Assembly (NCBI GenBank): GCA_964616855.1
Contig: CAZTUJ010000004.1
Location: forward strand, 3,610-67,609
From: an uncultured Gammaproteobacteria bacterium
GTDB taxonomy: Bacteria > Patescibacteriota > Patescibacteriia > Patescibacteriales > UBA12465
Reading direction: 5' to 3'
DNA length: 64,000 nt
Shown here: one piece after another, positions 1,703-64,000 of the stretch
How the letters are laid out: each line of letters begins with the position of its first letter
Numbering within the stretch: the stretch's first letter is position 1
Program-made: the position numbers and the translations under genes
Notes under the pieces: generated by a model
What the model saw: the letters and a program-made list of their open reading frames with translations, nothing else
The model's database searches: none
What the model was told of the DNA's origin: nothing

Positions 1703-2635
1703 TTATTTAGAGGTAACAATGGTCGGCGCTCCTGCTCCCTGAATATATTGATAAGCATATAAGGCCGCGCTCGTGGCCTGCCCCATAGCAATAGTGATTT
1801 GCTTAAATTCACTACTAACAACATCACCAGCCGCAAATAAACCAGGAGTCTTAGTGCTGTATTTTTCATCAACTAAAATTTGGGAACGATCATCTCGATC
1901 CGCAAAATCAGCCACTAAATCCGTGCTGGCGATACGACCAATTTCTACAAATACTCCATCTAAGGGCAAAACAACATCAACTCCTTCAATATTATTATAA
2001 GTAAGGCTTTCAACTTTAGTCTCGCCATTAATTGAGACCATTTTAGCATTAGTAATGATTTTGATATTGGGGCGAGCCTTCACCTCTTCCACTAAAGAAT
2101 CAAAAGCTTTATAAGAATCGCTTCTAATTACTAAATAAACTTGAGCCGCAATTTTAGACATCACCTCAGCGGCATCAAAAGCGGAATTACCGCTACCAAT
2201 CACAGCTATAGTCTTACCTTTATAGAGCGGCCCATCGCAATTAGCACAATAAGAAACACCCTTACCACTTAATTCAATTTCCCCAGGAACAGCTAAACGT
2301 CGAGGGGCTAAGCCCATGGTAATAATTACGGTCTTGGCTTCATATTGATCTCTTTCGGTGAAAACAATAAAATTACCATCCGCTTTTTTCTCTAAACGCT
2401 TAACTTCACAATTCTTAATTTCTACCCCTGAAGCCAAAGCATGTTCATTAAAACGGGTAATTAAGTCAAAATTGCTAATATTAGTAAATCCTGGATAATT
2501 TTCAATCTCTCCCGCCCAAATAATCTGACCACCAGGCTCTTTCCCTAAAATCAAAGTCTTCATCTCCCTTCTGGCCGCATAGATGCCCGCAGTAATCCCC
2601 GCCGGTCCTTGACCAATAATAATAGTGTCGTACAT
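1703..2635 (-). CDS. trxB: thioredoxin-disulfide reductase
   Basis: 310 aa. FAD motif IIIGQGPAGITAG, redox-active CANCDG, NADPH motif VIGSGNSA. Confidence 0.9.
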   Translation of the reverse strand: MYDTIIIGQGPAGITAGIYAARREMKTLILGKEPGGQIIWAGEIENYPGFTNISNFDLITRFNEHALASGVEIKNCEVKRLEKKADGNFIVFTERDQYEAKTVIITMGLAPRRLAVPGEIELSGKGVSYCANCDGPLYKGKTIAVIGSGNSAFDAAEVMSKIAAQVYLVIRSDSYKAFDSLVEEVKARPNIKIITNAKMVSINGETKVESLTYNNIEGVDVVLPLDGVFVEIGRIASTDLVADFADRDDRSQILVDEKYSTKTPGLFAAGDVVSSEFKQITIAMGQATSAALYAYQYIQGAGAPTIVTSK

Positions 2636-2680
2636 AAAATAATAATATTTAAAATTAAAATAAACTCTATAATCTTTTAA

Positions 2681-2709
2681 ATTATACTATGTCTATTTTT
2701 AAAAAGCAA
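2681..2709 (-). promoter_or_regulatory. candidate sigma70-type promoter of trxB (TTGCTT-17-TATAAT)
   Basis: On the complement, TTGCTT (2709-2704), 17-nt spacer, TATAAT (2686-2681), about 45 nt upstream of the trxB ATG. Confidence 0.4.
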
Positions 2710-11927: not shown

Positions 11928-12836
11928 TTATTTTTTATAATGTTTAGCAGCTTCTTCGGGGAAGACTGGGTTAATAATTAATCCGGAGCCTAATTCTACT
12001 CCCGCCCAGATATTGGGCCGGGGTTGGATTTTTAAGTAAAAATGCTGGTGAGGATTATCTAAATCGTTATGAGTAAAGAAATTAAAGTCGTAATCTAGAT
12101 GTTTTAGTCCACTTGCTACTAATTTTAAGACTTTGGCTAAAGATTTTATTTCCGTTGGACGCAATAAGCAGATATTATCAGTATGGCGGCGGCTAAGTAT
12201 CCAGACTTCGTAGGGAAATTCACTAGCAAAAGGCGCAAAGGCGATGATATTTTTATCCGCGTAAATATTACGGGGGCCAGCTTCTTCTTCGGTGTTGAGT
12301 TGGCAAAAGGGACAGTTTTTATTTTCTACTTGATATAGAGCTACGCGGTTTCTTTCGTCTATAATATCGGGAGGGAGAACGGAGGAGGCGAAGATTTGGG
12401 AATGAATATGTTTTAAAGAAGCGCCAGCGGCCCCGCCCTGGTTTTTAAAGCAGAGAAGGTAGTTGATTTTTTTATCTTTTTTTAATTTTTGACTACGAAT
12501 CTGGAATAAGGACAAGATCATTTCAATCTGCTTTAGGCTTAAATCTGCAAAATCTTCATAGTGCTGACTACTGTCAATCACTATTTCTTGGTAGCCATAA
12601 GCATTCTTATTGTCAGTTGAGAGGGCGGGAAAAATATTTTTTATGGCCGCCGTTTGCCACCTTCCCTTTGGTGGTAGCTGGGAAAGAATCTGCTTAGGGT
12701 TAATACTTTCCTCACAAAAAGGACAGGCCGCCTTAGGGGTGCTCCTTTTTATGTCATTGGGTCGGCGGCTACGCTTGGGGGCGAAAATGACGCTGCGCCC
12801 ATTTAAGGGATTATAGCGAATTTGTCCTTTTTCCAT
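11928..12836 (-). CDS. HIT-superfamily GalT-like nucleotidyltransferase (galactose-1-phosphate uridylyltransferase-like)
   Basis: 302 aa. Two CPFC knuckles and active-site LKHIHSQIF (HxHxQ). Confidence 0.65.
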   Translation of the reverse strand: MEKGQIRYNPLNGRSVIFAPKRSRRPNDIKRSTPKAACPFCEESINPKQILSQLPPKGRWQTAAIKNIFPALSTDNKNAYGYQEIVIDSSQHYEDFADLSLKQIEMILSLFQIRSQKLKKDKKINYLLCFKNQGGAAGASLKHIHSQIFASSVLPPDIIDERNRVALYQVENKNCPFCQLNTEEEAGPRNIYADKNIIAFAPFASEFPYEVWILSRRHTDNICLLRPTEIKSLAKVLKLVASGLKHLDYDFNFFTHNDLDNPHQHFYLKIQPRPNIWAGVELGSGLIINPVFPEEAAKHYKK

Positions 12837-14226: not shown

Positions 14227-14298
14227 GCGCCCATAGTTCAACGGATAGAACACCAGCCTTCTAAGCTGGATACGTAGGTTCGATTCCTACTGGGCGTA
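14227..14298 (+). tRNA. tRNA-Arg (anticodon TCT)
   Basis: GCGCCCATAGTTCAACGGATAGAACACCAGCCTTCTAAGCTGG...GTAGGTTCGATTCCTACTGGGCGTA. Clean cloverleaf. Confidence 0.9.
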
Positions 14299-14328
14299 CG
14301 AATTTAATTATTTAATATCATTAATTAT

Positions 14329-14508
14329 ATGGAAAATAAGAAGAAAGCGGCTGTCTCCGCTTTAAAAAAGACGATTGCCAAGCCGAAGGCAGTAAAAAAG
14401 CCGGCTGCGGCCACGAAAAAGACCCGTGCAGAAATTGAGGAAATGTTTGCTTTTAGCTTCGGTTGTGATTGCAGCTCCTGTTCCCATCACTGCGGCGATA
14501 AGAAGTAG
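14329..14508 (+). CDS. 59-aa Lys-rich protein with C-terminal CxCxxCxxxC cluster (unknown function)
   Basis: Just under the ORF-track cutoff. Own translation MENKKKAAVSALKKTIAKPKAVKKPAAATKKTRAEIEEMFAFSFGCDCSSCSHHCGDKK. Lies between two tRNAs of one transcription unit. Confidence 0.5.
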   Translation: MENKKKAAVSALKKTIAKPKAVKKPAAATKKTRAEIEEMFAFSFGCDCSSCSHHCGDKK

Positions 14509-14532
14509 GCTTAATTTATTTTAAGATAAGGA

Positions 14533-14607
14533 TGGTGCCCATGGTGTAGTGGTAACACAGCAGGTTGTGGTCCTGTTATTTCGGGTCCGATTCCCGATGG
14601 GCACCCC
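14533..14607 (+). tRNA. tRNA-His (anticodon GTG) with encoded G-1 and CCA
   Basis: GGTGCCCATGGTGTAGTGGTAACACAGCAGGTTGTGGTCCTG...GGGTCCGATTCCCGATGGGCACCCCA. The extra 5' G pairs with C73, the His identity feature. Confidence 0.9.
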
Positions 14608-14614
14608 ATTTTGA

Positions 14615-14641
14615 AAAGACGAGTTTAAAAGCTCGTTTTTT
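14615..14641 (+). terminator. rho-independent terminator after tRNA-His
   Basis: AAGACGAG-tttaaaag-CTCGTTTTTTT. Confidence 0.75.
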
Positions 14642-14756
14642 CTGTTATATAAGGTAAGAAATGAAGTTTGCCAAAATAAATTTTGTCTTATTTAAAATTA
14701 ATATTCATGCTATTATTTTAATTATATTAATTAAATATTATTTTATTAACCAAAAT

Positions 14757-15062
14757 ATGAATAATTGGAATATTCCCAATTGGCTTGAAGAAGAAATTCA
14801 TAAAAGAGATACTCATTGTATCTATTGTGGGGTTAAATTTGATAAAGACGTTAAAAATAATCAAAAAACTATCGAACATATTATAAATGATGCAAAAATT
14901 ATAAATAGAGAAAATATAGCATTATGTTGTCGCTCTTGTAATGCCAGTAAAGGGTCAAAAAGTTTGTTTCATTGGTTGCTTTCAGATTATTGTAAAACAA
15001 AAAATATTATATCAAAGAATATTGCGCCTATTGCAAGAAAAGCATTAAAAAATGAGTCGTAA
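14757..15062 (+). CDS. HNH endonuclease
   Basis: HCIYCGVKFD...TIEHIIND...NIALCCRSCNASKG (HNH with CxxC pairs). The ORF track starts at 14661, but the first 32 codons are low-complexity AT-rich sequence, so the start is uncertain. Confidence 0.8.
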   Translation: MNNWNIPNWLEEEIHKRDTHCIYCGVKFDKDVKNNQKTIEHIINDAKIINRENIALCCRSCNASKGSKSLFHWLLSDYCKTKNIISKNIAPIARKALKNES

Positions 15063-15698: not shown

Positions 15699-16589
15699 TT
15701 AATCAAAAACGCCGGTACTCAAATATTTATCACCCCCATCTGGGGCCATAACTACAATGTTTCCGGTAGTTATTTTACGAGCAACTTGTATGGCCACATA
15801 TATATTTGCCCCGGAACTCATTCCTAGAAATAATCCCTCACGTCTAGTTAATTTTTTAAGCATAGCAAAGGCATTTTTGTCCGACACCATTACTTTCTTA
15901 TCTATTATATTAACGTCGAATATTTTAGGAACGATTGCTTCGCTCATATTTTTTAAACCTTGAATCTTGTGGTTTATGTATGGCTCAACGGCAATTTTTA
16001 TTACATCTGGTCTTTGTTTTTTTAACCTCTGCCCCACGCCCGTGAATGTCCCCGAGGTACCCAGGCCGGCGACAAAGTGGGTGATCTCTGGCAAGTCTCG
16101 TAAGATTTCGTCGGCTGTCTCTTCGTAATGAACTTTTGGATTATTTAGATTATCGTATTGATTTAACATAATAAATTTTTTAGGATTTTGTTTTATGAGC
16201 TTCTGTGTCAAACGTATTGATCCATCAATTCCTTCTTTTTTATCTGATAGGATTATTTTAGCCCCATAAGCAGTGAGAATTTTTTTTCTCTCCATGCTTA
16301 CACTTTCCGGTAAAACTAAAATTACTTTATAACCTTTAACTGCTGCCACCATAGCGATTCCAATTCCAGTATTTCCAGAGGTTGGTTCAATGATAGCCAT
16401 GTTTTTATTTAATTGACCGCTAATTTCCGCCCTTTTGATCATTCTGTAGGCAATCCTATCTTTTATTGATCCGCCGGGATTTGCCTTCTCAAGCTTTATA
16501 TAAATATTTACACCAGGTTTAACAAAAAGCTTATTTATTTTTACCATCGGTGTATTACCAATCGTTTCTAGAATATTATTATATTTCAT
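15699..16589 (-). CDS. cysK: cysteine synthase (O-acetyl/O-phosphoserine sulfhydrylase, CysK/CysM family)
   Basis: PLP-lysine motif NPGGSIKDR, asparagine loop EPTSGNTGIG, GLGTSGTFTG. The ATG at 16589 (MKYNNILETIGNTPMV) fits the family N-terminus. The track start at 16703 would read through a terminator hairpin. Confidence 0.85.
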   Translation of the reverse strand: MKYNNILETIGNTPMVKINKLFVKPGVNIYIKLEKANPGGSIKDRIAYRMIKRAEISGQLNKNMAIIEPTSGNTGIGIAMVAAVKGYKVILVLPESVSMERKKILTAYGAKIILSDKKEGIDGSIRLTQKLIKQNPKKFIMLNQYDNLNNPKVHYEETADEILRDLPEITHFVAGLGTSGTFTGVGQRLKKQRPDVIKIAVEPYINHKIQGLKNMSEAIVPKIFDVNIIDKKVMVSDKNAFAMLKKLTRREGLFLGMSSGANIYVAIQVARKITTGNIVVMAPDGGDKYLSTGVFD

Positions 16590-16608
16590 ATTTTTAATGT
16601 AAATAAAT

Positions 16609-16630
16609 AAAAAACCCCGGTTTCCCGAGG
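16609..16630 (-). terminator. intrinsic terminator inside the cysK 5' leader (attenuator)
   Basis: Complement: CCTCGG-GAAA-CCGGGG followed by TTTTTTATTTATTT, ending about 20 nt before the cysK ATG. No upstream co-directional gene for it to terminate. Confidence 0.65.
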
Positions 16631-16657
16631 TGTCCGCCAAGTAATATCTAAAAAATA

Positions 16658-16726
16658 TTAACAACAAGCAGCCCTCGAGAATTCGAAGTGACAGCTGGTG
16701 CAATTTGTGTAGGATGTTCTATTCAT
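16658..16726 (-). CDS. 22-codon Cys-rich leader peptide (candidate attenuation uORF)
   Basis: Own translation MNRTSYTNCTSCHFEFSRAACC*. Four Cys codons, two of them tandem just before the stop. The ATG lies 7 nt after the -10 hexamer. Confidence 0.5.
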   Translation of the reverse strand: MNRTSYTNCTSCHFEFSRAACC

Positions 16727-16732
16727 ACTTAA

Positions 16733-16760
16733 ATATTAGCACGCAATAGTCATAAGTCAA
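16733..16760 (-). promoter_or_regulatory. promoter TTGACT-16-TAATAT of the cysK leader
   Basis: Complement: TTGACT (16760-16755), TAATAT (16738-16733). Confidence 0.55.
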
Positions 16761-16869: not shown

Positions 16870-18141
16870 ATGGGACACATTACCTCAAAAAATTATTTAA
16901 AGCTCCAGAAGCGGTTGGATATGAATGCTCAGGGTGCGCCCGCCTCAGAGTCGCTTTATAAAATTTTAGAAATTTTATTCTCCGCTGAAGAAGCGGAAAA
17001 AGTCTCTCTTTTGCCAGTGATGCCATTTGCGGTGAGTGAAGCCGCGGGCAGATGGAAGCTATCGGAGGCAGATACAAATAAAATTCTTTATGAATTAGCA
17101 GACAAAGGGCTTTTATTGGACATGAATAATAACGGTGTACAGACTTATGTTTTAGCGCCCACGATGGCCGGTTTTTTTGAGTTTGCTTTAATGAGGACGG
17201 ATGGTCTTTTTGACCGCAAGATTTTATCAGAGTTATTTTATAACTATATCAACGAAGAAGATGATTTTGTAGAAAAAGTTTTGATGCAAAAAACGCCAAT
17301 TGCCCGCACGCTGGTGCATGAAAACACCATTCAAAGTAAAGATCAATCCGAGGTTCTTGATTATGAACGAGCCACTCATATTATTAATTCCGCTAGTTGC
17401 ATTACGGTCGGAACTTGCTATTGTCGTCATAAAATGGAGCACTTAGGTAAGGCTTGCCACGCCCCACAAGATGTTTGCTTAACTTTTAATACGGCGGCTG
17501 AAAGTTTATCTAAACACAAGATAGCTAAAGAAATTAGCAAAGAAGAGGCCTTAGCTGTTTTAGATAAATGTGTTGATTATGGTTTAGTTCAGATTGGCGA
17601 TAACGTCCAAAACCAAGTTAATTGGATTTGTAATTGTTGTGGTTGTTGTTGTGAGGCTATCCAAGCTTATAAAAAAATTGGTTATAGACGAAAGATAAAT
17701 AGTAATTTTTTTGCACTTGTAAATAGTGAAAAATGCGTTGCCTGTGGAGCCTGTGTTTCTAAATGTCCGGTCGAAGCTATTAAAACGGTTAATAATAAAG
17801 CGGTAGTTGATAAAGATATTTGTATTGGTTGCGGTGTTTGTAAGCGTCAATGTGGCCCCAAAGCAATAAGTATTGAGCGTCGAGAAAAATTAGTCGAAGT
17901 GCCTTTAGACAGTTTTGAGCGTTGTGTTATCACAGCCATTGAGAAAAATAAATTACAAAATTATATTTTTGACAACTATAGTCTCTGGACGAACGAGCTG
18001 TTGCGTAATTTAGTGGGGGTATTATTTAAATTAAGTCCAGCTAAATTTTTAATTGCTAACCGACAATTAAAGTCTCAGTTCCTTAAGGCGCTGAGAAAGT
18101 CAAAGACCAGTAAAATATATAGTAGTTTAAATAAAGCATAA
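16870..18141 (+). CDS. multi-cluster Fe-S protein (2x[4Fe-4S] ferredoxin domain plus extra Cys motifs, N-terminal helical/wHTH-like region)
   Basis: 423 aa. CVACGACVSKCP and CIGCGVCKRQCG ferredoxin motifs, additional CITVGTCYCRHKMEHLGKAC and WICNCCGCCCE. No CxxxCxxC radical-SAM motif. TGgTATAAT extended -10 at 16840-16848. Confidence 0.7.
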   Translation: MGHITSKNYLKLQKRLDMNAQGAPASESLYKILEILFSAEEAEKVSLLPVMPFAVSEAAGRWKLSEADTNKILYELADKGLLLDMNNNGVQTYVLAPTMAGFFEFALMRTDGLFDRKILSELFYNYINEEDDFVEKVLMQKTPIARTLVHENTIQSKDQSEVLDYERATHIINSASCITVGTCYCRHKMEHLGKACHAPQDVCLTFNTAAESLSKHKIAKEISKEEALAVLDKCVDYGLVQIGDNVQNQVNWICNCCGCCCEAIQAYKKIGYRRKINSNFFALVNSEKCVACGACVSKCPVEAIKTVNNKAVVDKDICIGCGVCKRQCGPKAISIERREKLVEVPLDSFERCVITAIEKNKLQNYIFDNYSLWTNELLRNLVGVLFKLSPAKFLIANRQLKSQFLKALRKSKTSKIYSSLNKA

Positions 18142-19481: not shown

Positions 19482-19949
19482 ATGAGAAATACTAAACAAG
19501 CCCTACTTTGGATTATTGATATTCTTAAGGAGAATAATATAAGCTACCGGATAAGTGGCGGTTTTGACGCTAGACTTTATGGTTCTAAACGTAAATTAGC
19601 AGATATCGATATTGAAGTTCACCAGAAAAATATTAATAAAATATATAAGAATACCAAAAAATTTGTTATCTACGGTCCAAAAAGGTATAAGGATGAAAAT
19701 TGGGATTTACAGTTAATGACTTTAAAGTATAAGAATCAAGAAATAGACATTGCTTCTTTTGAAGCAAAAATATTTAATCAGGCAACTCATAAGTGGGTTA
19801 AAAGACCGGGGGTATTTAGTGATTCTGTTGTAAAAAAAGTTTTTGGAATTGAGGTTTTTGTTGAAAATGTTAAAGCCCTTATTACCTATAAGAAAATATT
19901 AGGGCGTCCGGTTGATCGTCAGGATGTTAAGGATTTATCTGTTAATTAA
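19482..19949 (+). CDS. small Pol-beta-superfamily nucleotidyltransferase, Lnu(A)/ANT(2'')-like
   Basis: 155 aa. ISGGFDARLYGSKRKLADIDIEV matches the G-G-x-x...D-I-D-I catalytic pattern of small O-nucleotidyltransferases. TGcTATAAT ends 7 nt before the ATG. Confidence 0.5.
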   Translation: MRNTKQALLWIIDILKENNISYRISGGFDARLYGSKRKLADIDIEVHQKNINKIYKNTKKFVIYGPKRYKDENWDLQLMTLKYKNQEIDIASFEAKIFNQATHKWVKRPGVFSDSVVKKVFGIEVFVENVKALITYKKILGRPVDRQDVKDLSVN

Positions 19950-46342: not shown

Positions 46343-46729
46343 GGGGATGCCGGGCATCGATAATAACGACTGCTCTTAGATATTCAAAACGGGTTTTGGT
46401 TAAACCGTAAAAATAATCTAAAAACATACATGCCAAAACTACTGGCAGAGCGTTTACTTGGAAAGTTCCGAGTTTCGCTCCCGTTATGGCTTAATTAAAA
46501 AATAGCCATAGCCATCGGACCGGGGAGGCTTCAGCTCCGTCATCCGGTGTCATAATTTGAAGCTTTGAAAATAATCACCCCCTCTGGTTATTTTCGAGAC
46601 AATGAGGGGTGACCGTCGTTGCTTTTGTTCGGTTTTTTATGACGACGGTGACACCAATTAAATCGGACTAATTTTGTAAAGTTATCTAGGGGTACTTATT
46701 AGACATGGGTTCAACTCCCATCATCTCCA
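46343..46729 (+). ncRNA. ssrA: tmRNA (ssrA)
   Basis: 5' GGGGATGCCGGGCATCGA pairs with 3' ...GGGTTCAACTCCCATCATCTCCA (tRNA-Ala-like, G3:U). The internal tag frame from GCC at 46432 runs to TAA at 46492-46494 and reads AKTTGRAFTWKVPSFAPVMA. The resume codon is not certain. Confidence 0.85.
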
Positions 46730-46739
46730 CATAAGATTG

Positions 46740-46823
46740 GCCGCGGTGGCGGAACTGGTAGACGCGCTGGACTTAAAATCCAGTTGTAGAGATACAGTGC
46801 GGGTTCGATTCCCGCCCGCGGCA
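46740..46823 (+). tRNA. tRNA-Leu (anticodon TAA)
   Basis: GCCGCGGTGGCGGAACTGGTAGACGCGCTGGACTTAAAATCCAG plus long variable arm plus GCGGGTTCGATTCCCGCCCGCGGCA. Confidence 0.9.
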
Positions 46824-46881
46824 CGTATTTTTAGCAGGGCTTGCCTTGCCGAAAAATATTTGCTATATAAAAGATAGATTT

Positions 46882-46953
46882 GCGGGTATCGTATAATGGT
46901 TATTATGCAACCTTGCCATGGTTGAGAAAGGGGTTCGATTCCCCTTACCCGCT
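46882..46953 (+). tRNA. tRNA-Gly (anticodon GCC)
   Basis: GCGGGTATCGTATAATGGTTATTATGCAACCTTGCCATGGTTG...GGGGTTCGATTCCCCTTACCCGCT. Confidence 0.88.
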
Positions 46954-46959
46954 CACATC

Positions 46960-62215: not shown

Positions 62216-64000
<1,785 letters not shown>

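Follow-up and report, generated by a model that had tools for sequence, protein, structure and literature searches.

How might a bacterium with few recognizable regulators match the expression of a cysteine synthase gene to its supply of cysteine? The question is raised by a locus in a 64,000-nucleotide (nt) stretch of contig CAZTUJ010000004.1, which we call the window. It belongs to the Patescibacteria, or candidate phyla radiation (CPR), uncultured bacteria with tiny genomes and few recognizable regulators, in which gene control is almost unexplored. Immediately upstream of a cysK gene lies an element of about 120 nt that comprises a promoter, a short open reading frame (sORF) rich in cysteine codons and an intrinsic terminator. 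A sequence-only reading of the window had proposed that this is a ribosome-mediated attenuator keyed to the charging of Cys-tRNA. We conclude, with a probability of roughly 0.85, that the element is a cysteine-responsive transcription attenuator of cysK in which the position of a ribosome is set by the supply of Cys-tRNA(Cys). A ribosome that switches on cysteine synthesis when charged Cys-tRNA is low is the most likely explanation because distant relatives carry leaders of this design built from different sequence.

If this is correct, a biosynthetic enzyme of CPR bacteria is regulated through tRNA charging without a protein regulator. A conserved attenuator would also point to tight coupling of transcription and translation in these cells and to the translation of leaderless mRNAs. 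The leader further provides independent, regulatory evidence that this pyridoxal phosphate enzyme serves cysteine supply in CPR cells.

The cysK leader

All coordinates are window positions, and the promoter, sORF, terminator and cysK all lie on the minus strand. The gene proposed to be regulated (15699..16589, with its ATG at 16589) encodes a cysteine synthase of 296 amino acids. Its product matches Pfam PALP (2.6e-64) and the NCBIfam model TIGR01136 (cysKM) with 364 bits against a cut-off of 344, which bears out its assignment to the CysK/CysM type. The upstream neighbor, a 4Fe-4S domain protein gene at 16870-18141, is divergent. As had been claimed, then, no co-directional gene lies upstream, and the terminator can act only on a transcript that starts in the intergenic region. 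The divergent orientation also disposes of a bidirectional terminator serving the neighboring gene; a repeat or mobile element was rejected because the terminator motif is found only once in the window.

The promoter has the hexamers described before, TTGACT (16755..16760, seen in the sequence and by promoter scan) and TAATAT (16738-16733), separated by 16 nt. The promoter scan also flagged a TG that makes the second of these an extended -10 element, TGcTAATAT (16733..16741). The sORF starts at an ATG at 16726, where it had been placed; the gap from the end of the -10 element is 6 nt, and the 7 nt given earlier counts to the A. This geometry, from which we infer the site of transcription initiation, implies a transcript that would be leaderless or nearly so. 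Such a start is plausible in this genome, since a Shine-Dalgarno (SD)-like motif lies within 18 nt of the ATG in only 3 of 50 window ORFs of at least 120 amino acids. TATAAT-like hexamers are found 5-20 nt upstream of many long ORFs (for example, at 19482, 47005 and 11928-12836), and SD-independent, possibly leaderless initiation looks like the norm here. There is likewise no SD sequence before the ATG of cysK.

The sORF (16658..16726) has 22 codons followed by TAA (16660-16658) and would encode the peptide MNRTSYTNCTSCHFEFSRAACC. As reported, four of its codons specify cysteine and the last two, TGT TGT, directly precede the stop. The first group (16691..16702) consists of C9 (TGC, 16702-16700) and C12 (TGT, 16693-16691) and is the stall site that we propose gives readthrough. 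The second, C21 and C22 (16661..16666), is conserved in frame in five CPR lineages, the window clade included. Runs of at least two consecutive cysteine codons are thus represented by C21-C22 in the window and by CC or CCC in relatives. Cysteine makes up 18% of the sORF as against 0.77% of the residues in the long ORFs of the window, and the probability of at least four cysteines in 22 codons is 2e-5 by protein usage and 1e-3 by the frequency of TGY trinucleotides. The window has 672 small ATG-started ORFs, and no other intergenic one combines at least three cysteines with a CC pair; the one other ORF that qualifies by its cysteines sits within a gene.

The terminator scan recovered the predicted hairpin, A-CCUCGG-GAAA-CCGGGG-U followed by a U-run (16609..16631), with seven pairs, five of them G-C, and an energy of -11.2 kcal/mol. 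It begins 27 nt after the sORF stop, and its U-run ends 19 nt before the cysK ATG, close to the distance of about 20 nt given before. Intrinsic terminators of the same type occur at the ends of other genes in the window.

What could keep this terminator from forming? Four segments of the leader can pair in mutually exclusive ways. Region 1, ACUUCGA (16683..16689), pairs either with region 2 (CUUCGA/UCGAGG) or with the 3' arm of the terminator (ACUUCG/CGGGGU). Region 2, identified by folding and a duplex test, is the 5' strand of the antiterminator, UUCUCGAGGGCUGCU (16667..16681); it lies inside sORF codons 16-20, where a translating ribosome can cover it. Region 3, GGCGGACACCUCGGGAA (16622..16638), pairs with region 2 to form the antiterminator or, through CCUCGG, with region 4 to form the terminator. 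The local hairpin CUUCGA-auuc-UCGAGG at 16688-16673 corresponds to the classical 1:2 pairing.

The antiterminator consists of a 15-bp helix and a 6-bp outer helix. In the former, UUCUCGAGGGCUGCU pairs with GGCGG-A-C-A-CCUCGGGAA, and the core of this helix is TCTCGAGG/CCTCGGGA; the latter, ACUUCG/CGGGGU, takes in the 3' arm of the terminator. The sequence-only reading had found the core pairing, which is real, and underestimated its extent at 8 bp. The antiterminator hairpin is the minimum free-energy fold of 16690-16605 (-29.6 kcal/mol, z = -5.27), and none of 200 dinucleotide shuffles folded as well. The duplex formed by region 2 has an energy of -20.9 kcal/mol, versus -9.6 +/- 2.5 for shuffles (p = 0.001). 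A cysteine-rich leader ORF, a predicted terminator, an antiterminator that excludes it and conservation in relatives, which we describe below, are the hallmarks of an attenuator that can be read from sequence, and all are present.

Might a known riboswitch account for the structure instead? In a scan of the whole window, no Rfam family covers the leader at gathering thresholds; at E <= 10 the best matches to the leader region are chance matches (E = 3.5-6.6), far under gathering scores. Nor does any family fall on the cysK leader in 11 related loci, which places the element outside the known riboswitch, T-box and leader families in that database.

The sORF is easily overlooked. The cysK frame is open upstream as far as a TTG at 16703 (15699-16703, minus strand), and a CysK homologue of 90% identity (P0001, at L082 3001-3969) is annotated with 322 amino acids, an excess of 26 codons that takes it across the terminator and into the leader. 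By extending cysK in this way, gene callers mask the sORF. As for a separate cysK promoter, the candidate TTTACA-17-AATAAT (16603-16575) was rejected, since its -10 falls within the cysK coding sequence.

Conservation among close relatives

Is the leader conserved? In the close clade, defined by CysK proteins 73-100% identical to that of the window (L081, L082, L083-87 and L088), it is. Two further metagenome contigs carry an identical CysK with the same neighbors. On contigs where CysK is 90%, 75% or 73% identical, the neighbors differ and the leader is the same. These relatives keep the -35 element (TTGACT is invariant in the alignment of L082, L083 and L088), the extended -10 element, the ATG 6 nt after it, the 22-codon ORF and the cysteine codons, which appear as CC or C.CC at codons 9-12. 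The leader peptides of the 90%, 75% and 73% relatives are MNKKSYTNCTSCHFEFSRAACC, MIRIYFSNYSCCHFEFSRAACC and MNRIYISNCTCCHFGFSRAACC.

Two patterns of constraint are superimposed on the sORF. Across codons 2-11, nucleotides and amino acids alike have changed, yet the frame and the cysteine codons are retained. The stop codon in the window and its relatives is TAA, TAA, TGA or TAG at one fixed position, as expected of an ORF that is translated but not of a motif that acts purely as RNA. Codons 13-22, in turn, are nearly invariant in nucleotides and coincide with the antiterminator strand. The helix substitutions found in the clade all preserve pairing (U-G to U-A, G-C to G-U). The main antiterminator helix is fully (100%) paired in the four sequences, the changes in region 3 (G>A, C>U and G>A) keep its pairing in every case, and the U-G pair of the terminator becomes U-A in L083 and L088.

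A second upstream cysteine-containing sORF, MTPMTLRCCGCLI, occurs in L083-L087 (around 2735-2780, 221 nt 5' of cysK). We set it aside as probably due to chance: it overlaps the terminator hairpin (ACACCCA...TGGGTGT) that follows the creD-like gene upstream and is absent from other lineages.

Recurrence in distant lineages

The nearest named relatives of this CysK in a protein search are from Parcubacteria, Moranbacteria, Peregrinibacteria and other Patescibacteria, in agreement with the earlier description of the lineage as CPR-like. Seven further CPR cysK loci were sampled by CysK similarity alone (52-58% identity). In six of the seven, the design is rebuilt from unrelated nucleotide sequence, so that the conservation sought in relatives extends from the close clade to distant CPR lineages. 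From 5' to 3' there is a sigma-70-like promoter, an ATG, an ORF of 16-29 codons, a terminator and cysK. TTGAC[AGT] occurs at the same distance as in the window in L089, L092, L174, L175 and L177, and in eight of nine CPR lineages, L091 being unclear, 6-9 nt separate the -10 hexamer from the sORF ATG. Each distant sORF has a run of two or three cysteine codons at codons 10-14. Downstream is a G+C-rich hairpin whose 5' arm has its complement in a strand within the ORF or directly 3' of it; the hairpin is followed by 5-7 U, and cysK starts 21-45 nt further on. The leader peptides are MNKTTIIKLNICCCALAFISRVGCCRFCS (L089), ..NSCCCVLLNQKRVFYCCL (L091), MNYNIEKLICCCKKSTIAGNYCC (L092), MNKTILTKLNSCCCNSSNIKREFCCCRQK (L174), MDKMIFSETKICCRRP (L175) and MNNKSDQKNCCCKACTKEVVFLYP (L177). 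In the seventh locus, L176, cysK is preceded by a spacer of just 100 nt, with no leader.

No alignable sequence is shared among the leader lineages. Upstream of the leader-cysK unit the neighbor may be proS, cysS, creD, a divergent gene or another, from which we conclude that the element is tied to cysK and travels with it. These two features already speak to the idea that the unit is an independent small gene, encoding a cysteine-rich micro-protein or a small RNA under its own promoter and terminator, with cysK transcribed from a weak promoter that overlaps the terminator. The promoter-ORF-terminator unit is indeed complete, members of the close clade share an invariant C-terminal CHFEFSRAACC and there is a -10-like TACATT 6 nt upstream of the cysK ATG. 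Across lineages, however, only the cysteine runs are conserved in the peptide, and the unit always stands immediately 5' of cysK whatever the other neighbors. The invariant C-terminal half is exactly the antiterminator strand, so that constraint on the RNA explains its conservation; the significant complementarity between sORF and terminator described below would have no role in a simple terminator; and the putative cysK promoter lacks a -35 element, its TACATT hexamer not being conserved. We regard the small-gene explanation as highly improbable.

Loci from outside the CPR served as an outgroup and as controls. They came from a scan of genome contigs with CysK, none of them above 47% identity. 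Leader ORFs with CCC precede cysK in one Bacteroidetes and two Ignavibacteria loci (L003 2790-3000, L043 2850-3000 and L061 2800-3000), with the sequences MKTEKRNITLKLTVTCCCHSSFKLCWKDTI, MLTCCCKNITPLLMEDIA and MKNITKNSAVVLANNSCCCTPANMMSSEVFV. These leaders have a strong terminator, AAGCCCTTC...GAAGGGCTTTTT, and within the ORF a GGAAGG or GGAGG strand complementary to it. Among 164 cysK loci, upstream sORFs containing CCC were found on the forward strand at 10 loci and on the reverse strand at none. A metagenome scan with the CPR CysK alignment gave a semi-random sample that we use as background only: among the matches listed (38-52% identity), almost none has a cysteine leader. That cysteine leaders with CCC and terminators also occur in Bacteroidota and Ignavibacteriota suggests that transcription attenuation by cysteine codons is wider than the searchable literature shows.

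Several observations on these loci stand apart from the argument. The ORFs upstream of the leaders in L003 and L043 end similarly and may be cysE. In L061, a Stygiobacter metagenome-assembled genome, a SAM riboswitch (RF00162, 81 bits; 2571-2686, minus strand) adjoins the cysteine leader on the opposite strand, which would put two different sulfur-amino-acid RNA sensors back to back. Two Porticoccaceae loci, L023 and L052, have GTG-started, cysteine-rich sORFs (MSSPCSVPCVTRCCT and MYSRCCARCTTRCYT) about 160-175 nt 5' of cysK; other Porticoccus loci have none by the criteria used, and these two could be chance ORFs or diverged leaders. Some CysK homologues (P0028, P0047) are fused to ParB_N (PF02195) or a cysteinyl-tRNA synthetase domain. 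A ParB_N gene lies directly 3' of cysK in L177 (2408-2800), and cysS lies directly 5' of the leader-cysK unit in L092 (852-2255). At window positions 14227-15062, an HNH endonuclease ORF (14661-15062, plus strand) comes just after the tRNA-Arg(TCT) and tRNA-His genes, between them and the 3' end of cysK; in L088, an HNH ORF is likewise near cysK and tRNAs. Elsewhere, the window contains a tmRNA gene with the tag AKTTGRAFTWKVPSFAPVMA, followed by tRNA-Leu and tRNA-Gly (46343-46954), and a 23S rRNA (62216-64000) whose 5' 1,649 model positions are present before it runs off the window end.

Predicted switching by the ribosome

How would cysteine supply choose between the two structures? From the anatomy, the conservation and the alternative pairings, we infer a scheme for transcription start, sORF translation, stalling and termination. 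Transcription would begin from a constitutive sigma-70 promoter, either exactly at the leader AUG or a few nt from it. When cysteine is low, the first ribosome would stall with an internal cysteine codon in the A-site (C9 or C12 here; CCC in most relatives), covering region 1, ACUUCGA, and leaving region 2, UUCUCGAGGGCUGCU, free. Once region 3 (GGCGG..CCUCGGGAA) is made, region 2 would pair with it, sequestering the 5' arm of the terminator; the outer helix would be unable to bring the stem up to the U-run, and RNA polymerase would read through into cysK. When cysteine suffices, the ribosome would continue across region 2 until it reaches the terminal Cys-Cys-stop. This would leave region 3 free to pair with region 4 (CCUCGG/CCGGGG), and the hairpin and U-run would end transcription 19 nt before cysK.

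The complementarity on which this scheme depends was tested by comparing the sORF segment after the first cysteine run with the 5' arm of the terminator, using 1000 dinucleotide shuffles per lineage. It is significant in every CPR lineage (p <= 0.011), has p = 0.008-0.09 in the three non-CPR leaders and reaches a Fisher combined p of 7e-13 over nine independent lineages.

The effect of the ribosome was modeled thermodynamically in two ways. In equilibrium folding with a 29-nt ribosome mask, placing the A-site on the first cysteine of the first run gives a terminator probability, P(terminator), of 0.00-0.17 in all 10 CPR leaders (0.02 in the window with the mask at C9). With the ribosome on the second cysteine run, P(terminator) is 0.90-0.97 (0.97 in the window); on the stop codon it is 0.38-0.97. 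In a proxy for co-transcriptional folding, in which the RNA ends before the 3' arm of the terminator, the 5' arm is sequestered in 12 of 12 leaders (0.69-1.00) when the ribosome is at the first run and is released once the ribosome covers the complementary strand. Folding under a ribosome mask therefore gives the logic expected of an attenuator: a stall at the first run sequesters the terminator 5' arm, and the terminator can form once the ribosome has moved past that point. The sequence-only reading is supported in keying attenuation to Cys-tRNA charging, with one refinement. The stall that would relieve termination is at the internal C9/C12 and not at the terminal TGT-TGT, where the ribosome covers the antiterminator strand.

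What weighs against attenuation

Several points count against the proposed attenuator. There is no two-sided compensatory change among the four close sequences, and covariation measures equal those of shuffled controls; because these tests are uninformative, the structural support comes from recurrence across lineages and not from classical covariation. The distant sORFs were picked partly by eye for their cysteine content, which biases the statistic for in-frame TGY. When C12 is masked in leaders of the window clade, with a footprint to A+13, region 2 is already clipped and P(terminator) is 0.23-0.93; the outcome thus depends on the effective stall position or footprint. The equilibrium fold without a ribosome is the long hairpin, with its outer helix abutting the U-run. 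The terminators of the non-CPR leaders dominate in every equilibrium state (P = 0.94-0.95 in L003 and L061, 0.65-0.91 in L043), and in these three only the co-transcriptional proxy shows switching. The weak -10-like TACATT, 6 nt before the cysK ATG, may allow some transcription of cysK that is independent of the attenuator.

The most puzzling point is the second cysteine run. Directly 3' of region 2 and in frame, it follows the first run by 10-12 codons in the window clade, L089, L091, L092 and L174, and is absent from the leaders of Moranbacteria and Peregrinibacteria and from the non-CPR leaders. Stalling at this run puts the ribosome over region 2 and should favor termination, whereas a starved cell needs readthrough; the simple model has no explanation for it. 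Possibly, the second run parks the ribosome on region 2, giving a robust OFF state or a raised threshold. The 30-nt spacing of the runs matches that of a collided disome with both A-sites on cysteine codons, another possibility. A third is that UGUUGY, which stands 10-11 nt beyond the 1:2 hairpin, makes the polymerase pause. More speculatively, the two-run design, present in at least five CPR lineages, might be a distinct attenuation logic suited to leaderless, SD-free translation. The first run would make the ON decision and the second would park the ribosome, or the leading ribosome of a disome, on the antiterminator strand, replacing a polymerase pause or producing a thresholded, non-monotonic response. 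Cysteine leaders would then form a widespread, unannotated 'Cys ribulon' across the Patescibacteria with analogues in Bacteroidota and Ignavibacteriota. We consider this extended proposal unlikely.

Could the leader act on translation instead of transcription? If the hairpin and U-run were no efficient terminator, the structures might govern how readily ribosomes reach the cysK start, or how stable the mRNA is. The experimentally studied mycobacterial leaderless cysteine sORF acts on translation (10.1101/834739), the fold of the full leader pairs the 5' end of the sORF with an A/U-rich stretch before the cysK AUG, and a cysK that lacks an SD sequence depends on an unstructured start region for initiation. 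Yet a G+C-rich stem followed by 5-7 U in every CPR lineage is the signature of intrinsic termination, one that is used at gene ends in this window. The conserved complementarity is aimed at the 5' arm of the terminator and not at the cysK start region, which is A/U-rich and unstably paired in all states. Control of translation in place of termination is, in our judgment, very unlikely.

Even more improbable than the small gene considered above is an arrest peptide (HFEFSRAACC here) that senses free cysteine, O-acetylserine or sulfide in the manner of TnaC, or a riboswitch. The strong conservation of the last 11 codons in the close clade and the significant RNA structure speak for such a sensor, but between CPR lineages only the cysteine codons, the frame and the pairing potential are conserved while peptide and RNA sequences are not, and Rfam offers no match. 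Finally, a chance ORF beside an ordinary terminator is effectively refuted: although promoter-like and ORF-like matches are plentiful in this A+T-rich region and covariation in the close clade is uninformative, the design recurs in six of the seven independently sampled CPR loci and three loci of other phyla, the strand asymmetry of CCC sORFs is 10 to 0 and the statistics of cysteine enrichment and complementarity are significant.

Comparison with known systems

Attenuation by ribosome position is best known from the leader peptides of the trp, his, leu, thr, pheA and ilv operons of Enterobacteria, described by the Yanofsky model. Like them, the cysK leader has a short ORF rich in codons for the end-product amino acid, four regions with mutually exclusive 1:2, 2:3 and 3:4 pairings, and an intrinsic terminator that directly precedes the first biosynthetic gene, with the ribosome's position proposed to pick the pairing. 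It differs in using cysteine and in its host, a CPR bacterium that hardly uses SD sequences. The classical leaders are SD-led, whereas this ORF is apparently leaderless, its ATG 6 nt after the -10 element. Many cysK leaders also have a second cysteine run 3' of region 2, and the cysK leader shows no sequence homology to the classical systems and has no Rfam model.

Leader peptides with cysteine have been considered before. Seliverstov et al. (2005, PMC1262725) listed candidates, none with a terminator, in Mycobacterium, P. acnes and B. longum. In mycobacteria, polycysteine leaderless sORFs have been characterized experimentally and unmask the SD sequence of the next gene, acting on its translation (Canestrari et al. 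2020, 10.1101/834739). The cysK leader resembles these in its first cistron, a candidate leaderless sORF with consecutive cysteine codons, in its position 5' of a cysteine-metabolism gene and, as we propose, in sensing Cys-tRNA through ribosome pausing. Unlike the mycobacterial case, in which no conserved terminators were found, it has a canonical terminator and antiterminator and no SD sequence to mask; it is also unrelated in phylum and sequence.

The sequence-only reading rightly cited mycobacteria as a precedent, but they are not the only one. The uORFC-8-2 element before cysS in Rhodobacterales, with two tandem cysteine codons, two stems and a 3' U-run, is predicted to be a ribosome-mediated transcription attenuator with a cysteine uORF (Brewer et al. 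2021, PMC8632094). That element regulates cysS in alpha-proteobacteria and ours precedes cysK in Patescibacteria; no sequence relation was detected, and the cysK leader does not belong to that family. In uORFC-8-2 a single cysteine pair lies inside the first stem, and the ORF is not described as leaderless, whereas CPR leaders often have two runs.

We found no paper that joins Patescibacteria or CPR bacteria with leader-peptide attenuation and no account of cysteine leaders before cysK in Bacteroidota, although coverage of the literature was incomplete and this is weak evidence. The family of regulatory elements in CPR bacteria is apparently undescribed. Since attenuation by cysteine codons is already known or predicted elsewhere, it represents a new variant in a new lineage and not a new principle. 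At about 120 nt, the element is self-contained and testable in vitro or in a heterologous host. It joins a predicted leaderless start of the mycobacterial type with the classical logic of terminator and antiterminator, upstream of cysK and often with a second cysteine run.

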